Positions 913 through 33,837 of a DNA stretch of 41,425 bases are shown here, piece by piece. Under the pieces are notes generated by a model, which saw nothing but the letters and a program-made list of their open reading frames with translations, was not told the origin of the DNA and searched no databases. A program made the translations under genes and the position numbers. Origin of the DNA: a virus (Duplodnaviria > Caudoviricetes); IMG/VR virus record IMGVR_UViG_3300027863_001337, positions 1-41,425 of that record. One strand, 5' to 3'. The first letter of the stretch is position 1; every line of letters starts with the position of its first letter.

Positions 913-1203
913 CTAAAATAAACTTCCCATTGTAGCGTCTATCCTTCGTTCTGCTATTTTTACATAGTCAGGGTCTTTTTCTATTAAGATATAACTTCTT
1001 CCTGTTTTCTTACACGCCATACCTGTAGTTCCACTTCCAGCAAAGGGGTCTAAAACTATGCCACCTGTGGGAGTTTTGGTTAAGATACAAAGATATTCCA
1101 TAAGTTTAAGGGGTTTGACTGTCGGATGGTCATTACGAAATTCTTTAAAATATTTTTTATATTTTTCTGGTAGTTGATTATATTGTTCTTTTGAGATAAT
1201 CAT
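913..1203 (-). CDS. Split DNA methyltransferase fragment 3 (SAM-binding C-terminus, 96 aa)
   Basis: NDHPTVKP and VLDPFAGSGTTG, no DPPY. ATG at 1203 overlaps the TGA of the upstream HNH (ATGA), so it is preferred over the ORF-track start at 1230. Confidence 0.88.
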   Translation of the reverse strand: MIISKEQYNQLPEKYKKYFKEFRNDHPTVKPLKLMEYLCILTKTPTGGIVLDPFAGSGTTGMACKKTGRSYILIEKDPDYVKIAERRIDATMGSLF

Positions 1204-1883
1204 TTTTTTATCATTATTGTATTGTGGCATTTTTTACATAAAGTAATGCCATTATTTATATCCCATAATTCCCGACACTTTAAAGCATCATACATTGTTT
1301 GAATATTATTTTCTTTTATAATTTCCGACAATTGTTTTTTATGATGAACATTTAAGTTTCCGCCTCTTTTATCCCCACACATTTGACAGGTAAAGTTATC
1401 TCTTTTATAAACATTAAGCTTCCATTGAATATATTTTTTTGAACTTCTTATCTTATTATTTATAGTAGAAGTTCCACCTTTCCATCCATAACCATTTTCT
1501 CCTATACAAAACTTACTTTGCCACTCCCCAAAACATTTTCTTGAACAAAAATTTCTTTTTGTCTTTTTAATCTGTGATATTTTTTTTCTAAATTCTCTGC
1601 CACACCAATCGCATTGCACAATCTTGGTATTTTTTTGTGTATTATACCGATGATAACAATCAGAAGAACAAAAATTATGTTTTCTTATTCTACTATTCCG
1701 AATTCTAAATACCTTACCACAATAATCACATTTTACTTCTGAACTTTTATGCTGTGTATTCCACTTATGTTGACAAGATAAACTACAAAATTTACGCTTA
1801 TAATAAGAGTTAATACTTTCATTTTTGCGTTTGATAATTTCTGACCCACAGTATTCACAATATTTTTTCCTATATATCTTCAT
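1200..1883 (-). CDS. HNH homing endonuclease (gene-splitting element B)
   Basis: Three CxxCG...FCSxxC repeats, WKGG, RDNFTCQMCG...VHH...NGITLCKKCH. Confidence 0.9.
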   Translation of the reverse strand: MKIYRKKYCEYCGSEIIKRKNESINSYYKRKFCSLSCQHKWNTQHKSSEVKCDYCGKVFRIRNSRIRKHNFCSSDCYHRYNTQKNTKIVQCDWCGREFRKKISQIKKTKRNFCSRKCFGEWQSKFCIGENGYGWKGGTSTINNKIRSSKKYIQWKLNVYKRDNFTCQMCGDKRGGNLNVHHKKQLSEIIKENNIQTMYDALKCRELWDINNGITLCKKCHNTIMIKK

Positions 1884-1889
1884 ACAATG

Positions 1890-1918
1890 ATTATACTATA
1901 CTTATTTAGCAAAATCAA
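1890..1918 (-). promoter_or_regulatory. Sigma70-type promoter for HNH 1200-1883, probably leaderless
   Basis: TTGATT(1918-1913)-N17-TATAAT(1895-1890), 6 nt before the ATG at 1883; no SD. Confidence 0.65.
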
Positions 1919-2783
1919 GTATTTTCTTTATTTCCTCAACTATTTCTTGTGGAGTTTCGCTTCTTAAAATATATCCCTCTAAACCTTGCGAACGCTCTTT
2001 TCTACTTGCCTTCGCTACATAGAAAAAGCGATTATTGTTTATGTTCTGCTCTATATCGTTTGTGATATTCGTTCCAGTGTTCTCTATTTGCTTCACGCCA
2101 TTTTTTAAGTTCTGCTCTTGCACAATCCTTACAATATCCTCCAAAAGTTCCAGCAGTTCGTTTCCAAAAATTATCAAGTGTTTTATATTGTCCACATTTC
2201 TGGCATTTTCGGTATTCCACTCCTTCAATAATTTTATAATCTGCTCGCAATTTTCCGTGAAGTAATCTATGCTCGTGGCGAGAAAGACATTGTAAGTTTT
2301 CAATTCTATCATCTGTTGTATCAAGGTTGATATGATGGATTTCATATCCTTTTGGAAGTTTTCCATTTTGCTTTTCCCAAATATAAACTGCTCTACGCTT
2401 TGAGTATATTTTTCTGCTTCCTTTATCACGCCATTTAACATACCACCGATTTTCTGATTTTCTAAAATATTCCCACATATTGTCTCCTTTAAATAAATTA
2501 CTCTATCTGTATTATACATAGAAAAATCTAATAAGTCTACCTTTATATTTTTCACAAAGCGAGAAGCACCACCTGTATCGCCATAACCTGGGTCGCCCTT
2601 TTGATAATTATTTCCACACATATTTAACATAGACCCTTTATTACCAATTCTGCCACCAGTTGATTTACTTATTCCACTCTGTTCGTCTAACATATAACAC
2701 GGACACCCTGGATCGTGTTTTAATTCAAATAAATCCTGTAATTCTTTTGGCATTTTTTCAAAAATTTCTTTATCAATCTTCAT
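1902..2783 (-). CDS. Split DNA methyltransferase fragment 2 (293 aa) carrying an in-frame 177-codon insertion
   Basis: CPCYMLDEQSG, GDTGGASRF and FFYVAKASRKER are typical of this phage MTase family. ATG at 2783 overlaps the end of HNH 2773-3357. Confidence 0.82.
   Translation of the reverse strand: MKIDKEIFEKMPKELQDLFELKHDPGCPCYMLDEQSGISKSTGGRIGNKGSMLNMCGNNYQKGDPGYGDTGGASRFVKNIKVDLLDFSMYNTDRVIYLKETICGNILENQKIGGMLNGVIKEAEKYTQSVEQFIFGKSKMENFQKDMKSIISTLIQQMIELKTYNVFLATSIDYFTENCEQIIKLLKEWNTENARNVDNIKHLIIFGNELLELLEDIVRIVQEQNLKNGVKQIENTGTNITNDIEQNINNNRFFYVAKASRKERSQGLEGYILRSETPQEIVEEIKKILDFAK
2032..2478 (-). CDS. HNH endonuclease nested out of frame inside MTase fragment 2
   Basis: EIHHINLDTTDDRIENLQCLSRHEH plus C-terminal CQKC...YCKDC; SD AAGGAG before the ATG. 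Confidence 0.88.
   Translation of the reverse strand: MWEYFRKSENRWYVKWRDKGSRKIYSKRRAVYIWEKQNGKLPKGYEIHHINLDTTDDRIENLQCLSRHEHRLLHGKLRADYKIIEGVEYRKCQKCGQYKTLDNFWKRTAGTFGGYCKDCARAELKKWREANREHWNEYHKRYRAEHKQ
2511..2539 (-). promoter_or_regulatory. Internal promoter for HNH 2032-2478
   Basis: TAGACT(2539-2534)-N17-TATAAT(2516-2511), inside the insertion. Confidence 0.55.
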
Positions 2784-3357
2784 ATTTTTTTCCGTGAATT
2801 TTATAATGGCATTTTTTACATAAAGTAATTCCATTGTCTATATTCCAAAGTGCTTCACAATTTCTGGCATCATCTAATGTTTTAATATTATAATCCTTTA
2901 TCAATTTTGCTAATCCTATTTTATGATGAACTTCTAAATTTTTAGTGCTTTTACATATCTGACACTCATAATTATCTCTTTTCAATACTGATTTAATCCA
3001 TTTTAAATTTTCAGCACAAGTTCTAATAGCAAGTTGTAATTTAGATATTCCCCCTTTCCAATTGTAATGATTTACTCCTCTTATTTTTAACCCTCTTATT
3101 TGTGCTACCTCTGAATGTTTTTGATAAAATAATTTAACACTTTTAGCTCTCTTTTGTTTTTCTTCTAATGTATTTTTATGTCCTTTTTTTATTAATCCTT
3201 TTTGTCTACCAAGTTTTAGATTTGGTGATGGTTGTCTTCTTTTATACAATTCCGACCGACATTCAGCACAGCAAAACTCTCTTCCTTCTTTAAATTCAGA
3301 TGGTCTTCTATAAAGTGGTTTCCCGCATATTGAACATTTTGTATTAGGTGTTCTCAT
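2773..3357 (-). CDS. HNH homing endonuclease (gene-splitting element A)
   Basis: CSICG...FCCAEC, WKGG, RDNYECQIC...EVHH...NGITLCKKCH; C-terminal half clearly paralogous to 1200-1883. Confidence 0.9.
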   Translation of the reverse strand: MRTPNTKCSICGKPLYRRPSEFKEGREFCCAECRSELYKRRQPSPNLKLGRQKGLIKKGHKNTLEEKQKRAKSVKLFYQKHSEVAQIRGLKIRGVNHYNWKGGISKLQLAIRTCAENLKWIKSVLKRDNYECQICKSTKNLEVHHKIGLAKLIKDYNIKTLDDARNCEALWNIDNGITLCKKCHYKIHGKKYED

Positions 3358-5848
3358 ATAACCAATTCATTAACTTTTTCTTTTGTTCTTCTGTTATACC
3401 ACTTTTTAATTTATAATCGCAATCACAAGAAATCACCAGATTAGCGGGAAAACGCCCTTGATTTGTATAATAATTTGTATCACTACCCCTATCTGGTTCA
3501 CCACCCGCAAAAGTTCCTTTAGGTGCGTGATGTGCTTGGATTTTTTCAATCCCTATTCTTGCTTCGTTAATGTTTAACCCTGCCACTCCCCATTTCAAAG
3601 CATTATTAACAAAATTTTTATCATTTGGTTTTATTGCCCATATAATCGGCTCAAATGCTGGCTTTAAAGCAGTTCCGTATCCAATCCATAAGTTCGCTTG
3701 TTCATTTCTAAAAGGTGGTTTTCTTCTCATTTCCTCGCCAGTATCTCTATAAACCCATTTATTATCTTTTCTTTCACATAACTCTTGTTCAAATTGTAAC
3801 GCTATATTTAGAGATTTCGGAAAGCCACTATTGCCTGTAATAAAAATTTTGCCGTTTCTTCTGGCTACAAAAGCACCCGTCGGAACTTCTACACACCATA
3901 CATTCCCTTTATATTCAATTTCTTCAATTTTTGCTCTTGTGCTTCGTATAGTTTGTGTTCTTTGTTGTTTTGAAATAATATAAGATTCTCTATTCTGTTG
4001 TCTTGAGAATTGTGATTGATATGATGAACCACTTCCGTTCTTAATAATGGTCTGCCCAATTTTTGTGCTATTATAAGCCGATGTTCCATAACATAACCAT
4101 CTTTCCGAGCCATAATTGAAAATTCTTTTGGACATCTGACATATTTTATTGGCAAATAATTCCCGTGTTTTCTGAAATAGGTTACTCCACCTTTCCAAGA
4201 CGGGTTGTTTGCCCCAGTCATTTTTTGGCGATAACTTTCTAAACTCTTTTCTGTCCAATTTTTTCTGCCTAAATATCCTATCTTCTTTAACCAATCTTTT
4301 GCTTTTCCCGCACAATGTCTTGAACAATAATGGTTGTTGCTCTTTTTTATCCAAGCCAAAGGAAGCCAAAAATCTTTGCCACAAATCGGACATTTTATTT
4401 TTTTCATCTTTCTTTCTCGTAATGGCTTCTTCTTCTTGCTTTTTTGTATTGCTATTTTGAGACACTCTTTTGAGCAAATCTGATTTCTTAATGCCTGTGT
4501 GTGATTGAAAGTCATAAATGGTTTCTGGCAAATCTTGCAAACTTTCCAATATGGGTATATTTTCTTCTGGTTGAAGTGTCTCTGCCCTTTGAAATATAAA
4601 TTTTCCTTCTCGTTCAATAAGGATACGATGGTTTCTGGAGACAATTTGGTCTGTAAAATCTGATTTAATTCTGTAAGCGGGATATTCGTTTTCATACAAA
4701 AATTTTCTTGTTGGTTTGTGAAACTCAAAATTATCATTATTTACATTATAACATAATACAGGATACTTATCAATGTCTTTATGGTAATGTTCCCACCCGT
4801 TAATAGTAAGTATTTCAGTATCTTCTGACAAACAACCATAGACCCACATTAGCGTATCTTTTATTACAAACCCCGCATCCTCTAATCCACAAGCCAATCT
4901 ATGAAATGTTCTTGTTCCACCAAAACATAAAAGAGTTGCACCGGGCTTGGCTACCCGTAAGCATTCTTTTGCCCATTGATAATTAAAATTTTCTACTAAT
5001 AAGTTGGGGATTGTTTTCTGCTTTTTGATGGCAAACAACGCACAAAGTAATGAGGTTAGATAAGGAATTTTCTCGTGTCTCTCTATATTTTCTGATATGA
5101 TGACACTGAATTTCTTTTCTTTGACATTTTTTTCCGCATAATTGACAAGTGTAATTATCTCGTTTATAGACAATTTTTCTGATTTGTTCCCAGTCACTTC
5201 CTCTAAAGCATCGTTTATTTTGAGACCTTCCATCAATGTAAGATGGATTATTCTTTCCTTGCATTTTTTTACTTTTATCTTTCTCATAACACCGCCGAGA
5301 GCAGAATTTTTGATTTCTCTTTTTAGCAATGAAATCGGTATTACAAACAATACATTTTCTTTGTCTCCATTCGGGAATAGGTCGTTTTTTATAAGGTTTC
5401 CGCACCACTCTTTTAACAATTCCAGCAGTTCTTGCTTTGTAATGACAATCGCTTGAGCAAAATCTCTTTTTAGACGATTTTGTAACTTCAAAAGACTTTT
5501 TACATAACTCACATCTTCTAACTTCTCTTCTTTTGCTACTAATTCCTTTGTATTGACACTCCCTTGAACAATAAATTCCTCTTCCCCAACGGCTTCTGGA
5601 TGGATTGGCATAAAAAACTTTTCCGCAAAATTTACAAAGTCTTTGTTCAACCATATCAATTTCATTATATCATTAATACTATCCCAAGTTAAGCCCATAA
5701 AACCAGAACTACTATCGTTAGTCAGAAAATATGGAGGGTCAGTTATAATAGTATCAATACAATTATCTGGAATATTCTTCATTACCTCTATGCAGTCCCC
5801 ATTTATCACTTTATTAACAAAATCATCTGGATATTTCATTTTACCCAC
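3344..5848 (-). CDS. Split DNA methyltransferase fragment 1 (catalytic DPPY) with an intein and a further in-frame insertion
   Basis: GDCIEVM, IITDPPY, FMGLTWD, WAKECLRVAKPGA, FGGTRTFHR, MWVYG|SGFPKS, GTALKPAFEPI, GRFPANL; lacks the FxGxG motif, which is in 913-1203. Confidence 0.9.
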   Translation of the reverse strand: MGKMKYPDDFVNKVINGDCIEVMKNIPDNCIDTIITDPPYFLTNDSSSGFMGLTWDSINDIMKLIWLNKDFVNFAEKFFMPIHPEAVGEEEFIVQGSVNTKELVAKEEKLEDVSYVKSLLKLQNRLKRDFAQAIVITKQELLELLKEWCGNLIKNDLFPNGDKENVLFVIPISLLKREIKNSALGGVMRKIKVKKCKERIIHLTLMEGLKINDALEEVTGNKSEKLSINEIITLVNYAEKNVKEKKFSVIISENIERHEKIPYLTSLLCALFAIKKQKTIPNLLVENFNYQWAKECLRVAKPGATLLCFGGTRTFHRLACGLEDAGFVIKDTLMWVYGCLSEDTEILTINGWEHYHKDIDKYPVLCYNVNNDNFEFHKPTRKFLYENEYPAYRIKSDFTDQIVSRNHRILIEREGKFIFQRAETLQPEENIPILESLQDLPETIYDFQSHTGIKKSDLLKRVSQNSNTKKQEEEAITRKKDEKNKMSDLWQRFLASFGLDKKEQQPLLFKTLCGKSKRLVKEDRIFRQKKLDRKEFRKLSPKNDWGKQPVLERWSNLFQKTRELFANKICQMSKRIFNYGSERWLCYGTSAYNSTKIGQTIIKNGSGSSYQSQFSRQQNRESYIISKQQRTQTIRSTRAKIEEIEYKGNVWCVEVPTGAFVARRNGKIFITGNSGFPKSLNIALQFEQELCERKDNKWVYRDTGEEMRRKPPFRNEQANLWIGYGTALKPAFEPIIWAIKPNDKNFVNNALKWGVAGLNINEARIGIEKIQAHHAPKGTFAGGEPDRGSDTNYYTNQGRFPANLVISCDCDYKLKSGITEEQKKKLMNWLYENT
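3889..4737 (-). CDS. HNH endonuclease nested out of frame inside the intein
   Basis: CKICQ...CSKEC, CPICG...YCSRHC, GANNPSWKGG, YVMEHRL...VVHHINHNSQDNRIENL. Confidence 0.88.
   Translation of the reverse strand: MIILSFTNQQENFCMKTNIPLTELNQILQTKLSPETIVSLLNEKENLYFKGQRHFNQKKIYPYWKVCKICQKPFMTFNHTQALRNQICSKECLKIAIQKSKKKKPLRERKMKKIKCPICGKDFWLPLAWIKKSNNHYCSRHCAGKAKDWLKKIGYLGRKNWTEKSLESYRQKMTGANNPSWKGGVTYFRKHGNYLPIKYVRCPKEFSIMARKDGYVMEHRLIIAQKLGRPLLRTEVVHHINHNSQDNRIENLILFQNNKEHKLYEAQEQKLKKLNIKGMYGV
4745..4773 (-). promoter_or_regulatory. Promoter for the intein-nested HNH, probably leaderless
   Basis: TTGATA(4773-4768)-N17-TATAAT(4750-4745) with extended TG, 7 nt before the ATG at 4737. Confidence 0.68.
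4983..5654 (-). CDS. HNH endonuclease nested out of frame inside MTase fragment 1
   Basis: Three CxxC...CSxxC repeats, GKNNPSYIDG, RDNYTCQLCG...CHHI...NLITLCVVCH. Confidence 0.88.
   Translation of the reverse strand: MVEQRLCKFCGKVFYANPSRSRWGRGIYCSRECQYKGISSKRREVRRCELCKKSFEVTKSSKKRFCSSDCHYKARTAGIVKRVVRKPYKKRPIPEWRQRKCIVCNTDFIAKKRNQKFCSRRCYEKDKSKKMQGKNNPSYIDGRSQNKRCFRGSDWEQIRKIVYKRDNYTCQLCGKKCQRKEIQCHHIRKYRETRENSLSNLITLCVVCHQKAENNPQLISRKF
5664..5692 (-). promoter_or_regulatory. Promoter for HNH 4983-5654
   Basis: TTAACT(5692-5687)-N17-TATAAT(5669-5664) with extended TG, 9 nt before the ATG. Confidence 0.55.
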
Positions 5849-5996: not shown

Positions 5997-6470
5997 TCAA
6001 TATACTTTTAACACCCAACTTAAAAAGTTATTTTCTTCTTTTGTGAAAATCAAATAAAAATATCTGCCATACCACCTCTTATCCTGAAGGATATGCATTC
6101 TCTTTAAACTAAATCCTCTTTGTTTTAAAGTCTCTAATCTGTTAGGGACTACCATGCTGTTTAAAAACTTAATACTTCCTAAAAAAGCGATTCCTTTCCT
6201 TGCTATTCTGCTTGCTTTTTCTAAAAACTTCCAACCTAACTGAAAAGGTGGATTTCCTACCACCCAGTCAACTTCTAAGTTCCACTCAAAGAAGTCTCTA
6301 CCTTCTTCTATCTCGCATTCGTATTTTTCCTTTTGTTTTATGTTGTTATACCATACCTTGTTTAACCCGCTACCTGCATCCAAAACTGAATCGTTTTCTC
6401 CTATTGGAGTTATTGCCAATAAATCTTTTACAGTCTCTTCTCTTGTATAGTAAAACTCTCTTGGTCTCAT
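5997..6470 (-). CDS. Small N6-adenine DNA methyltransferase-like protein
   Basis: FYYT, VLDAGSG (motif I) followed by VVGNPPF (motif IV). Confidence 0.8.
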   Translation of the reverse strand: MRPREFYYTREETVKDLLAITPIGENDSVLDAGSGLNKVWYNNIKQKEKYECEIEEGRDFFEWNLEVDWVVGNPPFQLGWKFLEKASRIARKGIAFLGSIKFLNSMVVPNRLETLKQRGFSLKRMHILQDKRWYGRYFYLIFTKEENNFLSWVLKVY

Positions 6471-6580: not shown

Positions 6581-7702
6581 ATGAAACTTACTTTGCAGAT
6601 AAAACTTTTGCCTGATGATACACAGTCTAAAAGCCTTATAGAAACTATTAAGGAATGTAATAAAGTTTGTAATATCATTTCTGATATTGCCTGGCAAAAT
6701 AAAACCTTTAATCAATTTAAACTTCATAATCTTGTTTATCATTCCATAAAAAAATCTTCTAAACTTTCTGCTCAAGCTCTTGTTAGATGTATTAGCAAGG
6801 TCGCTGATAGTTATAAACTTGATAAGAAAAAGAAACGAATTTTTAATCCTCTTGGAGCCATTACTTATGATGCCCGAATTCTTTCTTATAACATTGAAAA
6901 ACGAATTGTTTCTATTTGGTCTATTGATGGGAGATTGAAAATCCCTTTTATCTGCCATAATCCCAAATATCTTCCTTATATTAAAGGTGAAGCAGACCTT
7001 GTTTATAAGAAAGATAAATTTTATCTTTTTCAGACTGTAGAAGTTTCTGAAGAAGATGTTAAAGATGTTGAAGAATTTATAGGTGTAGATTTTGGTATAA
7101 CTGACATTGCCACACTGTCTGATGGAACAAAGTTTAGTTCTGAACAACTTAATAAGATTAGAGATAAATACTTTAAAGTGCGACGCTCTGTTCAACGCAA
7201 AGGCACGAAAGGAAGCAGAAAGCTTCTGAAACGGCTTAAAGGCAGAGAACAGAGATTTGCCACTATTACCAATCATACAATTAGCAAACGCATCGTAGAA
7301 AAAGCTAAAGCTGAAGGTAAAGGAATTGCTATTGAGGATTTGACCCACATTAGAGAAAGAACTACTGTAAGAAAGGCACAGAGGCGGAAACATCACTCTT
7401 GGGCTTTTAGGCAACTCCGTTTCTTTCTTGAATATAAGGCAAGGCTTGCTGGTATTCCTCTCGTTGTTGTTGACCCTAATTACACTTCTCAGATTTGTAG
7501 TGTATGTAAGACAATTGGTAATAGAAATGGCAAGCACTTTAGTTGTCCAAGCTGTGGCAATATTATTGATGCCGATGTTAATGCGGCTAAGAATATTGCC
7601 CAGTTGGGGGCTCTTTGTGGTAAACAGCCCCGAAAGGATGTGAATATGTTGAATTTTGTTTCGCATATTCCTCCTAAAGCTGACTGCTTTAGCTGTCAGT
7701 AG
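6581..7702 (+). CDS. tnpB: RNA-guided endonuclease TnpB
   Basis: RuvC GVDFG, IAIEDL, DADVNAAKNI; zinc finger CSVC...CPSC. Confidence 0.93.
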   Translation: MKLTLQIKLLPDDTQSKSLIETIKECNKVCNIISDIAWQNKTFNQFKLHNLVYHSIKKSSKLSAQALVRCISKVADSYKLDKKKKRIFNPLGAITYDARILSYNIEKRIVSIWSIDGRLKIPFICHNPKYLPYIKGEADLVYKKDKFYLFQTVEVSEEDVKDVEEFIGVDFGITDIATLSDGTKFSSEQLNKIRDKYFKVRRSVQRKGTKGSRKLLKRLKGREQRFATITNHTISKRIVEKAKAEGKGIAIEDLTHIRERTTVRKAQRRKHHSWAFRQLRFFLEYKARLAGIPLVVVDPNYTSQICSVCKTIGNRNGKHFSCPSCGNIIDADVNAAKNIAQLGALCGKQPRKDVNMLNFVSHIPPKADCFSCQ

Positions 7703-32661: not shown

Positions 32662-32690
32662 TTGACAAATTTCCTTTTTTAAGGTATGAT
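32662..32690 (+). promoter_or_regulatory. tnpB promoter, probably leaderless
   Basis: TTGACA-N17-TATGAT, 7 nt before ATG 32698. Confidence 0.7.
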
Positions 32691-32697
32691 AATAAAT

Positions 32698-33837
32698 ATG
32701 GAAAAAACCCTTAAATACAGAATATATCCGACAAGTAAACAACGAAGACTTTTGCAGGAACAGTTGAATGAGTGCCGTTGGCTTTATAACCATCTTCTTG
32801 AGCAAAGAAGAAATGCTTGGGAACAGGATAAAAAATCCATTGGTTATTTTGCTCAATGTAAATCGCTTGTTGCTTTGAAAAAAGAAAGACCGTCTCTTAA
32901 CAATGTCTATTCTCAAGTCCTTCAAGATGTTGCAGACAGAGTTGATAAGGCATTCCAGAATTTCTTTCGTAGAGTTAAAGCAGGTGAGAAAAAAGTTGGT
33001 TATCCAAGATTTAAAGGATTTGACCGCTATGATAGCCTGACTTATAAACAGGCTGGATTTGGTTGGGAAGTTAAAGATAACCGTCTTAATCTTTCTAAAA
33101 TTGGCTCTATTAAAATTAAAATCCATAGACCTATTATTGGAACTCTTAAAACTTGCACTATTAGAAGGCAGTCTGGTAAATGGTATGCTTGTTTTTCTGT
33201 TGAATATCAAAATAATCCTTTGCCCAAATCTGATGAAGCAGTTGGAATAGATGTTGGATTGGAAAGTTTTGCTACTTTGTCTACTGGCGAAAAAGTTGGC
33301 AATCCTTGCTTTTTCAAAACAGACCAGAAGGCTCTTGCAAAGGCTCAAAGAAAATTGTCTAAACAAGAGAAAGGTTCTCTTGAAAGAAAAAAAGCCAAAA
33401 AGGTAGTTGCTCATATTTACGAAAGAATATCTAACAGGCGTCATAATTTTATTCATCAGGAAGCCAGAAAAATTGTTAATCGCTTTGGCATAATTTGTAT
33501 TGAAAAACTTAATGTTAAAGGTATGATGCATAATCATACAAAAATCTTTGGTAATAAACTTAATAGAGGCATTGTGAATGTTGCTTGGGGTCAATTTGCT
33601 AACGTATTGTCGCACAAAGCGGAAGAGGCTGGTCGGCAATTTGTAGCAATAGACCCAAAGGGAACAAGTCAGATATGTAGTCAATGTGGTTCTGTTGTTG
33701 AAAAAGAACTGTCTGACCGTTGGCACGATTGTCCTGTTTGTAATGCTCATCTGCATCGTGATTATAATGCTTCTTTGAACATTTTGAGACTGGGACTACA
33801 GTCTCTGGGGTTTACCCCAAGAAGCCTACGACTTTAG
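32698..33837 (+). CDS. tnpB: RNA-guided endonuclease TnpB
   Basis: KYRIYPT N-terminus, GYPRFK, GIDVG, ICIEKL, TSQICSQCG...CPVC...HRDYNAS. Confidence 0.95.
   Translation: MEKTLKYRIYPTSKQRRLLQEQLNECRWLYNHLLEQRRNAWEQDKKSIGYFAQCKSLVALKKERPSLNNVYSQVLQDVADRVDKAFQNFFRRVKAGEKKVGYPRFKGFDRYDSLTYKQAGFGWEVKDNRLNLSKIGSIKIKIHRPIIGTLKTCTIRRQSGKWYACFSVEYQNNPLPKSDEAVGIDVGLESFATLSTGEKVGNPCFFKTDQKALAKAQRKLSKQEKGSLERKKAKKVVAHIYERISNRRHNFIHQEARKIVNRFGIICIEKLNVKGMMHNHTKIFGNKLNRGIVNVAWGQFANVLSHKAEEAGRQFVAIDPKGTSQICSQCGSVVEKELSDRWHDCPVCNAHLHRDYNASLNILRLGLQSLGFTPRSLRL

Follow-up and report, generated by a model that had tools for sequence, protein, structure and literature searches.

How can an intein spread when its homing endonuclease is written in another reading frame? 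This question is raised by the viral record IMGVR_UViG_3300027863_001337 of IMG/VR (Duplodnaviria; Caudoviricetes), of which the whole stretch analysed, 41,425 nucleotides (nt) in length, is hereafter referred to as the window. Within the window, the gene for an N6/N4 DNA methyltransferase (methylase) is interrupted by an intein, and an HNH nuclease is encoded by the same DNA in the +1 frame. In our interpretation the locus is probably a mobile, self-regulated element of two genes, an intein in the methylase frame plus a separate HNH gene at +1, for which splicing, transcription start, cleavage or nicking of the target and binding to a target mimic are each predicted from sequence comparison. 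The HNH gene would be transcribed from its own promoter within intein codons 21-30, and its product would cut intein-free methylase alleles at the codons for W-x-Y-G/S-G-F-P-K (the slash indicates the insertion point) and act as a repressor of its own promoter, bound to an inverted target copy beside the -35 hexamer. Carriers would be immune in two ways, either by interruption of the site with the intein or, in intein-less carriers, by mutation of the site. As to its history, a site-targeting HNH already residing intein-less in the methylase would have entered an intein at the same site, replacing an in-frame LAGLIDADG endonuclease, and would often have been lost again to leave mini-inteins.

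Intein and HNH gene in two frames of the methylase

The host open reading frame (ORF) of the intein, at 3344-5848 on the minus strand as all features described below unless otherwise noted, was identified by Pfam as an N6/N4 DNA methyltransferase (PF01555), and on the basis of the ORF list and PF01555 it represents the N-terminal piece of a gene that goes on at 1902-2834 and 913-1230. The intein (3830..4834; 335 amino acids [aa]) is placed in the methylase frame between VYG and SGFPKS, with its motifs in the order C1, SRNH, WC and TGN/S, and the assignment of the splicing blocks to this frame in a first-pass annotation, made from the letters of the window alone, was herewith confirmed. The N-terminal splicing region (4520..4834) includes Cys1 and block B SRNH, of which His69 is encoded at 4630-4628, and the C-terminal splicing region (3830..3946) includes the block F Cys314 (3895-3893) and the terminal Thr-Gly-Asn. 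Both ends of the intein formed a HINT fold in an alignment-based AlphaFold2 model; the top Foldseek matches were inteins and other HINT domains, and the closest match in PDB was AceL NrdHF (6zgq; E 7e-6). Since the intein frame gave no match in Pfam or NCBIfam and the sequence search of PDB gave at best E 0.11, the identity of the intein is settled by this fold. Residues 156-292 were unstructured in the model (per-residue model confidence, pLDDT, below 50), and with the Pfam blank this bears out the earlier statement that the middle of the intein lacks an endonuclease.

The family was collected from viral contigs by an HNH search, in which the best 80 of 111 loci were analysed, and by three more scans using a mini-intein alignment, which are thus blind to HNH. 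The pooled set consisted of 170 distinct inteins, that is, 118 complete ones with HNH, 7 cut by contig ends, 29 mini-inteins, 13 in other host genes and 3 fragments. Cys1, the Cys of block F (F:4), TGN and Ser or Thr at +1 were each found in 92/92 HNH inteins, the catalytic splicing positions being invariant also in 26/26 mini-inteins, and block B S/TxxH was found by pattern in 90/92. The in-frame interruption of the host gene was confirmed by 192 empty alleles, and the methylase intein is likely to splice itself out, as judged from these alignments. Class 3 inteins are marked by the WCT triplet (Trp B:12, Cys F:4 and Thr G:5), and their position 1 is mostly not a nucleophile (PMC7891396; this and the other papers are cited from the accessible parts of their texts). 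In the present family Cys F:4, Thr G:5 and Cys1 are invariant and B:12 is a residue other than Trp, which does not fit class 3; the block F Cys may nonetheless serve as a branch point.

Alternatively, the intein might no longer splice, the HNH being an insertion similar to the ShiLan domain (see below) that is tolerated by the methylase or lethal to it, with the intein just shielding the target. This would fit the intein-less relatives, which keep the host frame open without any splicing domain, as well as the lack of a penultimate His; the methylase of the window is carried by three ORFs, and it must be counted against our interpretation that such a three-piece enzyme may have no need of splicing. 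We consider a dead intein very improbable, given the catalytic positions kept in every HNH intein and mini-intein above and the confident HINT fold. The penultimate Gly, pointed out in the first-pass annotation as unusual, is indeed a family-wide feature, and a phage intein with penultimate Gly splices, even faster than its own His mutant (PMC5050341).

The +1 ORF at 3889-4737 encodes a 282-aa protein with Cys-rich zinc-finger-like repeats followed by an HNH_3 domain (PF13392, above the Pfam cut-off with E 1e-8) at aa 219-257 (4083-3967), in agreement with its first reading as an HNH nuclease. The catalytic residues EHR, VxHH, N, N and H are invariant in 14/14 sequences. The HNH model of a family member matched I-HmuI (PDB 1u3e) best, at a middling level (Z 5.3; root mean square deviation 4.4 over 84 residues); enzymes of the I-HmuI type share HNH_3, and in the present family zinc-finger-like repeats are located N-terminal to the nuclease. 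Foldseek with the HNH model gave no match at E < 0.001, and the profile search of PDB with HNH detected only zinc fingers at E > 0.1. With respect to the overlap of this ORF with the splicing blocks, its reach into block F holds for this and some other copies and is not general.

The HNH was nested at +1 within an open methylase frame in 79 of the best 80 of 111 loci, and in all 118 complete HNH inteins of the pooled set the HNH is at +1 and the methylase frame is open. When the HNH of the window was shuffled synonymously over the middle of the intein, the host frame acquired 14.9 stops on average against 0 observed, and none of 5000 shuffles left it open. Variation at wobble positions followed the host frame at codons 1-60 and 301-335 and the HNH frame at codons 101-300, and was damped in both frames around codons 61-100. 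At the level of sequence variation, both frames are shown to be under selection.

The first-pass annotation had named homologous inteins with the HNH in frame, implying frameshifts in assembly, as the finding that would overturn its reading. Two database proteins, P0021 and P0100, do join the N part of the intein in frame to HNH, with the C-terminal block missing, as would be expected of such an artefact. An in-frame HNH was found, however, in 0/118 complete inteins and in none of the 170 pooled, no indels were detected in the contigs aligned to the locus, and over 92 loci the host frame contained 0 stops while the third frame contained 11.6 on average. The artefact is already refuted by the family, and we assign it practically no probability.

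Predicted promoter and start sites within the intein codons

A sigma70-type promoter is predicted at 4745..4773, consisting of TTGATA (4773-4768), TRTG (4755-4752) and TATAAT (4750-4745) and ending 7 nt before the ATG at 4737. This sequence, TTGATA-17-TG.TATAAT, scored 11/12 and is among the two top scorers of 39 promoter-like sites in 7 kb, a number near the chance expectation of 30.7 ± 5.6. For comparison within the family, the inteins were de-replicated at 80% to give 98 HNH inteins and 26 mini-inteins. The mini-inteins do not group together in the tree, where no fewer than 9 changes are forced, and the pair L200 and L201 shares 99% identity across the first 300 bases of the intein and 98-99% in the flanks; because of this scattering and near-identity, the mini-inteins are likely to represent repeated losses and to be a fair control.

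TAnnnT at Tyr29-Asn/Asp30 was found in 80/98 HNH inteins and 7/26 mini-inteins (p 3e-7), and the extended -10 element TRTGnTAnnnT in 48/98 and 1/26, respectively. With the protein held fixed, the -10 score of HNH inteins was 4.89 compared with a synonymous null of 4.31 ± 0.07, while that of mini-inteins matched its null (4.12 versus 4.02 ± 0.12). The -35 score was also above its own null (3.17 versus 2.82 ± 0.06). The internal near-consensus promoter claimed in the first-pass annotation was thus sustained, more strongly for the -10 than for the -35, and bases kept at synonymous positions show, as far as sequence comparison can, that the promoter is under selection at the DNA level. Several points weigh against it: the -35 is weak, at least 4/6 matches being present in 36/98 HNH inteins and 5/26 mini-inteins (p 0.11); TAnnnT is absent in 18/98 HNH inteins; and kinship among the loci makes the p-values overstate independence. 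Moreover, the RNA contigs X8 and X17 derive from a relative at 93% and are uninformative as to the start, as is the end of the cover in RNA run X17 at 4759, where the depth is about 4.

The ATG at 4735..4737 is a plausible, possibly leaderless start in this copy, and it is not conserved in the family. It could not be upheld as a general start, for a +1 stop is located between 4737 and codon 46 in 40/92 relatives; stops in codons 31-46 are as frequent as in mini-inteins (12/26), and an ATG at this position showed no enrichment (42/92 HNH inteins versus 10/26 mini-inteins). Beyond codon 47, +1 stops were found in 2/92 HNH inteins in contrast to 15/26 mini-inteins, and the selected +1 frame therefore starts near codons 46-47, where a second ATG (4693..4695; M-K-T-N-I-P) marks the family-wide boundary of the stop-free frame. 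Starts were scored in 86 of the 92 relatives, six loci being dropped as the catalytic motif was not found, some with a deleted or changed HNH core. The leaderless start was open in 34/86, and, for starts at codons 41-53, a preceding Shine-Dalgarno-like site was present in 21/52 leaderless-closed against 5/34 leaderless-open relatives (p 0.016). From these counts, one promoter thus seems to serve two modes of start in the family, although 9/86 have no evident start.

If the HNH were instead made from the methylase mRNA, by +1 frameshifting or by internal initiation near codon 46, the promoter letters would be a by-product of the C-Y-N/D residues. The start codon that is not fixed, the joined proteins P0021 and P0100, and the outgroup inteins with S-Y-N that also give TATAAT in 4/12 are in line with this possibility. 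On the other hand, enrichment of the synonymous T at -7 and of the Leu codon of TRTG is confined to inteins with the HNH, and the Shine-Dalgarno-like site is found more often in relatives whose leaderless start is closed, so that we regard production from the methylase mRNA as improbable. Decoupling of HNH expression from that of the methylase, as first suggested, remains likely in view of the +1 HNH and the selected internal promoter, without the start at 4737 being general.

Probable target site, its mimic and the spread of the element

Related HNHs were detected at +1 just past SGFPKS, without a splicing domain, in 35 loci, and with a split or adjoined methylase in 4 loci. In these intein-less elements a -10 was located 5-9 nt before the ATG in 25/39, compared with 5/181 control ATGs. 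WxYGSGFPK was intact in 0/34 intein-less carriers, which showed 18 different variants, against 80/94 empty alleles, and it was intact, though interrupted, in 72/92 intein alleles. In motif-independent searches, which used only the methylase N terminus and covered the best 120 of 4272 matches and the best 150 representatives, the site was intact in 169/192 empty alleles against 0/10 nested carriers; note that 104 of these 192 came from the same search as the set of 94. The gene-splitting copies L311 and L343 have also mutated the site. Since intein-less carriers mutate the site and empty alleles keep it, the W-x-Y-G/S-G-F-P-K codons are the inferred HNH target, represented in the window by the N-extein codons TGG GTC TAT GGT (4835..4846; 9/9 to TGGNTNTAYGG) as the putative left half and by the C-extein S(+1)GFPKS (3812..3829) as the putative right half. 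The simplest reading of these alignments is that the nuclease recognises the WxYGSGFPK codons and that mutation of the site in intein-less carriers provides self-immunity. A point against this is L046, which keeps WNYGSGFPK beside an antisense HNH; in this locus the middle codon breaks NTN and the insertion severs the upstream codons.

The loop after SGFPKS also accepts other inserts of about 70 residues, helix-turn-helix-like by eye (P0126, P0129, P0132 and others), and the alleles carrying these mostly keep an intact site.

Directly adjoining the -35 hexamer, an inverted homing-site mimic, CCATAAAGACA, is located at 4774..4784 in intein codons Y17-I21, with a match of 8/9. Codons 17-21 are synonymously skewed, while neighbouring synonymous sites are saturated, and on the other strand they read TGG NTN TAY GG, the codons for W-x-Y-G. 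At least 8/9 fixed bases of the mimic were present in 52/98 HNH inteins, against a protein-fixed null with a mean of 4.9 and a maximum of 11 in 300 shuffles, with codon bias for His CAT (43/43), Lys AAA (54/55) and Tyr TAC (71/76). In a different codon phase, the mimic was found in 11/39 intein-less elements, 10 of these over the -10 and start, versus 0/78 control windows. The LAGLIDADG sister inteins (n=8) gave best matches of only 4-6/9. The extein Gly(-1) codons are mostly GGG or GGA, which does not rule out the mimic, as the base in question falls where the Tyr codon allows no choice. I-TevI is known to repress its own promoter through an operator resembling its homing site (PMC2988022), and by analogy the mimic is likely to be an autorepression operator of the HNH.

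The likeness to the homing site could instead have arisen by chance, the conserved TACCATAAAGCCAT motif being a transcription-factor site, an UP-like element or the relic of an old promoter, and this we hold unlikely, though less so than the other alternatives. The following observations speak for such a motif and against an operator. The mimic was spotted after the fact and holds only 9 informative bases, so that at least 8 matches occur about once per 4 kb and at 21 places in the 41-kb window; it is missing in 46/98 intein and 28/39 intein-less elements, that is, in about half of the family; it is kept in 6/26 mini-inteins (null 0.7); its co-occurrence with the -10 is not significant (p 0.20); and in intein-less elements its letters form the -10 and start, which force 2 of the 9 bases. 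In the opposite direction, TACCAT, tried as a second -10, was rejected in the absence of any promoter excess of the motif (-10, 3.53 versus 3.58; -35, 3.35 versus 3.32; TG, 0/98), a relic would not preserve synonymous bases that are saturated at adjacent codons, and the motif is found again in a second codon phase and at a second position while being absent from the LAGLIDADG sisters. An RNA hairpin of TACCATAA with TTATGYTA was also considered and dropped, no compensating changes being seen by eye.

In L046, the antisense HNH (2851-3699) resides inside the site, and the half-site is inverted relative to the HNH gene, in the same orientation as the mimic; such an arrangement is a possible origin of the operator.

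The spread of the element was analysed with 135 inteins having enough flank. Twenty pairs were at least 90% identical over the whole element, and in 10 of these both flanks were below 75%, the extreme being L006 and L275 with 100% identity of the intein and 58% of the flanks; note that the downstream flank includes the variable loop and the upstream flank does not. In run X1, the depth rose from about 50 in the flanks to 107-121 over the intein, and one contig exits into a different C-extein. Near-identical inteins in divergent exteins indicate, by alignment, recent homing. The marks of a homing endonuclease, spread to divergent alleles and target loss in carriers, were thus both found, by indirect evidence.

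In the intein tree, the LAGLIDADG inteins form a clade (support 96) beside the clade of HNH inteins and mini-inteins (support 98), with the HNH intein of L042 falling outside the latter; L376 was left out of this comparison. The two outgroup inteins tested also carry LAGLIDADG. Because both sister and tested outgroup inteins carry LAGLIDADG, replacement of an in-frame LAGLIDADG by HNH is the likely order. Placing the intein label on the HNH tree takes 5 changes, of which well-supported branches force no fewer than 4, and for this reason the HNH has moved between intein and intein-less settings more than once. Against this stand the shortness of the trees and the quick-method, unrooted HNH tree, which leaves the direction of the moves unfixed. 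It is tempting to go further and see one HNH family at each step on the way to an intein endonuclease, free or gene-splitting, overprinted without splicing and immune through mutation of its target, and overprinted in an intein at that very target, where it displaced LAGLIDADG and had its promoter and autorepression operator written into the codons of the splicing domain; we put this forward tentatively, at a little less than an even chance.

Further members of the family were noted in other settings. The HNH of the L062 intein clusters among HNHs of the short intein-less type and begins past the N-terminal splicing region, which is likely an independent capture. In P0063, the same intein with a long middle has jumped to another host gene, an IstB/DnaC-like ATPase (YRYA/C...GN/SEFP), and in L185-L197 related inteins are inserted in an archaeal protein at EEAHxF/C, two tested ones carrying an in-frame LAGLIDADG-like domain. 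Among 50,697 records, no cultured phage was found to carry the element and one full match was from an uncultured phage; a member of the family is present in a cultured bacterium, Plastorhodobacter daqingensis (L173).

Known systems and surrounding genes

Inteins with out-of-frame endonucleases have already been described (Gosselin 2025, bioRxiv 10.1101/2025.01.02.630785), and the premise of the first-pass annotation that such endonucleases were undescribed is outdated. As far as the accessible text goes, the elements of that study share with ours an intact intein, an endonuclease on the same strand in another frame and an unstructured in-frame middle, together with signs of continued transfer, and an origin from free-standing homing endonucleases was proposed. 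The present locus agrees in having a same-strand, other-frame endonuclease with an open intein frame. The differences are that the published elements carry EndoVII-like enzymes in frame 3 within polymerase, capsid, terminase and thymidylate synthase, whereas here HNH_3 at +1 resides in an N6/N4 methylase and is accompanied by promoter, target and operator signals and by intein-less sisters.

The methylase gp65 of mycobacteriophage ShiLan carries an intein of the 'DNMT' group at the same site, WxYG/SGFPK (PMC5050341; PMC9957025), with a splicing domain of the same family ending WCVKVPTGAFVARRNGKVFITGN, but its endonuclease is an in-frame LAGLIDADG, it belongs to a separate clade, and neither promoter nor mimic is present at the matching position. 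The ShiLan domain (PMC11855218) is likewise an off-frame HNH in an open methylase frame, and its HNH is a distant relative of the intein HNH (30% identity, E 2e-7). It differs in being inserted after LKP, with no surrounding intein and, in the parts available, no promoter proposed; the intein-less sisters are of this ShiLan-domain type, with no splicing domain around the hidden HNH, unlike the copy of the window, which has one. The word 'promoter' is absent from the main texts of bioRxiv 10.1101/2025.01.02.630785 and PMC11855218, to the extent that these were accessible.

The closest regulatory likeness is I-TevI of the T4 td intron (PMC2988022), whose gene, inside a self-splicing element, has a promoter of its own and a homing-site-like operator, and which belongs to a composite element from a pre-adapted endonuclease (collaborative homing). 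I-TevI is a GIY-YIG enzyme of an RNA intron, with an experimentally shown operator of 15/20 nt identity; here, by comparison, an HNH enzyme of a protein intein would use a 9-base inverted mimic in host-frame codons, a role that is only predicted. In the literature covered, with subscription journals largely outside its scope, nothing was found that deals with a +1 HNH of this methylase intein, with the target of this HNH or with an operator for an intein endonuclease. Accordingly, the off-frame layout is already known, and the new part lies in the inferred target, the operator-like mimic, the two ways of becoming self-immune and the intermediates found side by side.

The accessible parts of both recent papers give as open questions by what route inteins come by their homing endonucleases and by what means hidden off-frame ones are expressed; with a named target, a promoter accompanied by a candidate operator, and naturally occurring intermediates, the family described here opens these questions to direct experiment. 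If the HNH family is indeed caught at all the steps tentatively put forward above, the element would be the first example among inteins of collaborative homing and of an endonuclease repressing its own gene, and its separate regulation would be the reason for the HNH staying out of frame. Within about 300 bp, the locus keeps four layers of information: the splicing domain, the nuclease, the predicted promoter and the putative operator. The nested HNH would escape gene callers that allow only a single ORF in a given stretch.

The region 913-5848 carries one methylase gene in three ORFs, with which five HNH ORFs are associated. Two of these (4983-5654 and 2032-2478) are nested off-frame within open host frames, two others (2773-3357 and 1200-1883) split the methylase gene, and the one at 3889-4737 sits inside the intein. 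The hidden HNH at 4983-5654 (PF01844) is ShiLan-like, in the +2 frame of an insertion of about 230 aa without splicing motifs; it has its own TTAACT-17-TG.TATAAT at 5692-5664, 9 nt before the ATG, and a search for its relatives gave only 3 weak loci. A promoter-like site at 1918-1890 ends 6 nt before the ATG of the HNH at 1200-1883, again in a leaderless-like setting. In run X1, one contig omits 2693-3438, and an allele without the HNH at 2773-3357 is therefore likely in the same sample. Further methylase ORFs of the window are located at 113-910 and 5997-6470. The window is a contig in its entirety, and its genes are phage-like, terminase, polymerase and helicase having been read by eye from the ORF translations. 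The sequencing runs that contain it best carry the label hot springs metagenome, and X1 and X2 may represent its source sample; runs with only a small share of it give no evidence of habitat. Two TnpB-like ORFs, also recognised by eye, lie at 6581-7702 and 32686-33837 on the plus strand, opposite to the main strand of the genome, and each is overlapped by a long antisense ORF.

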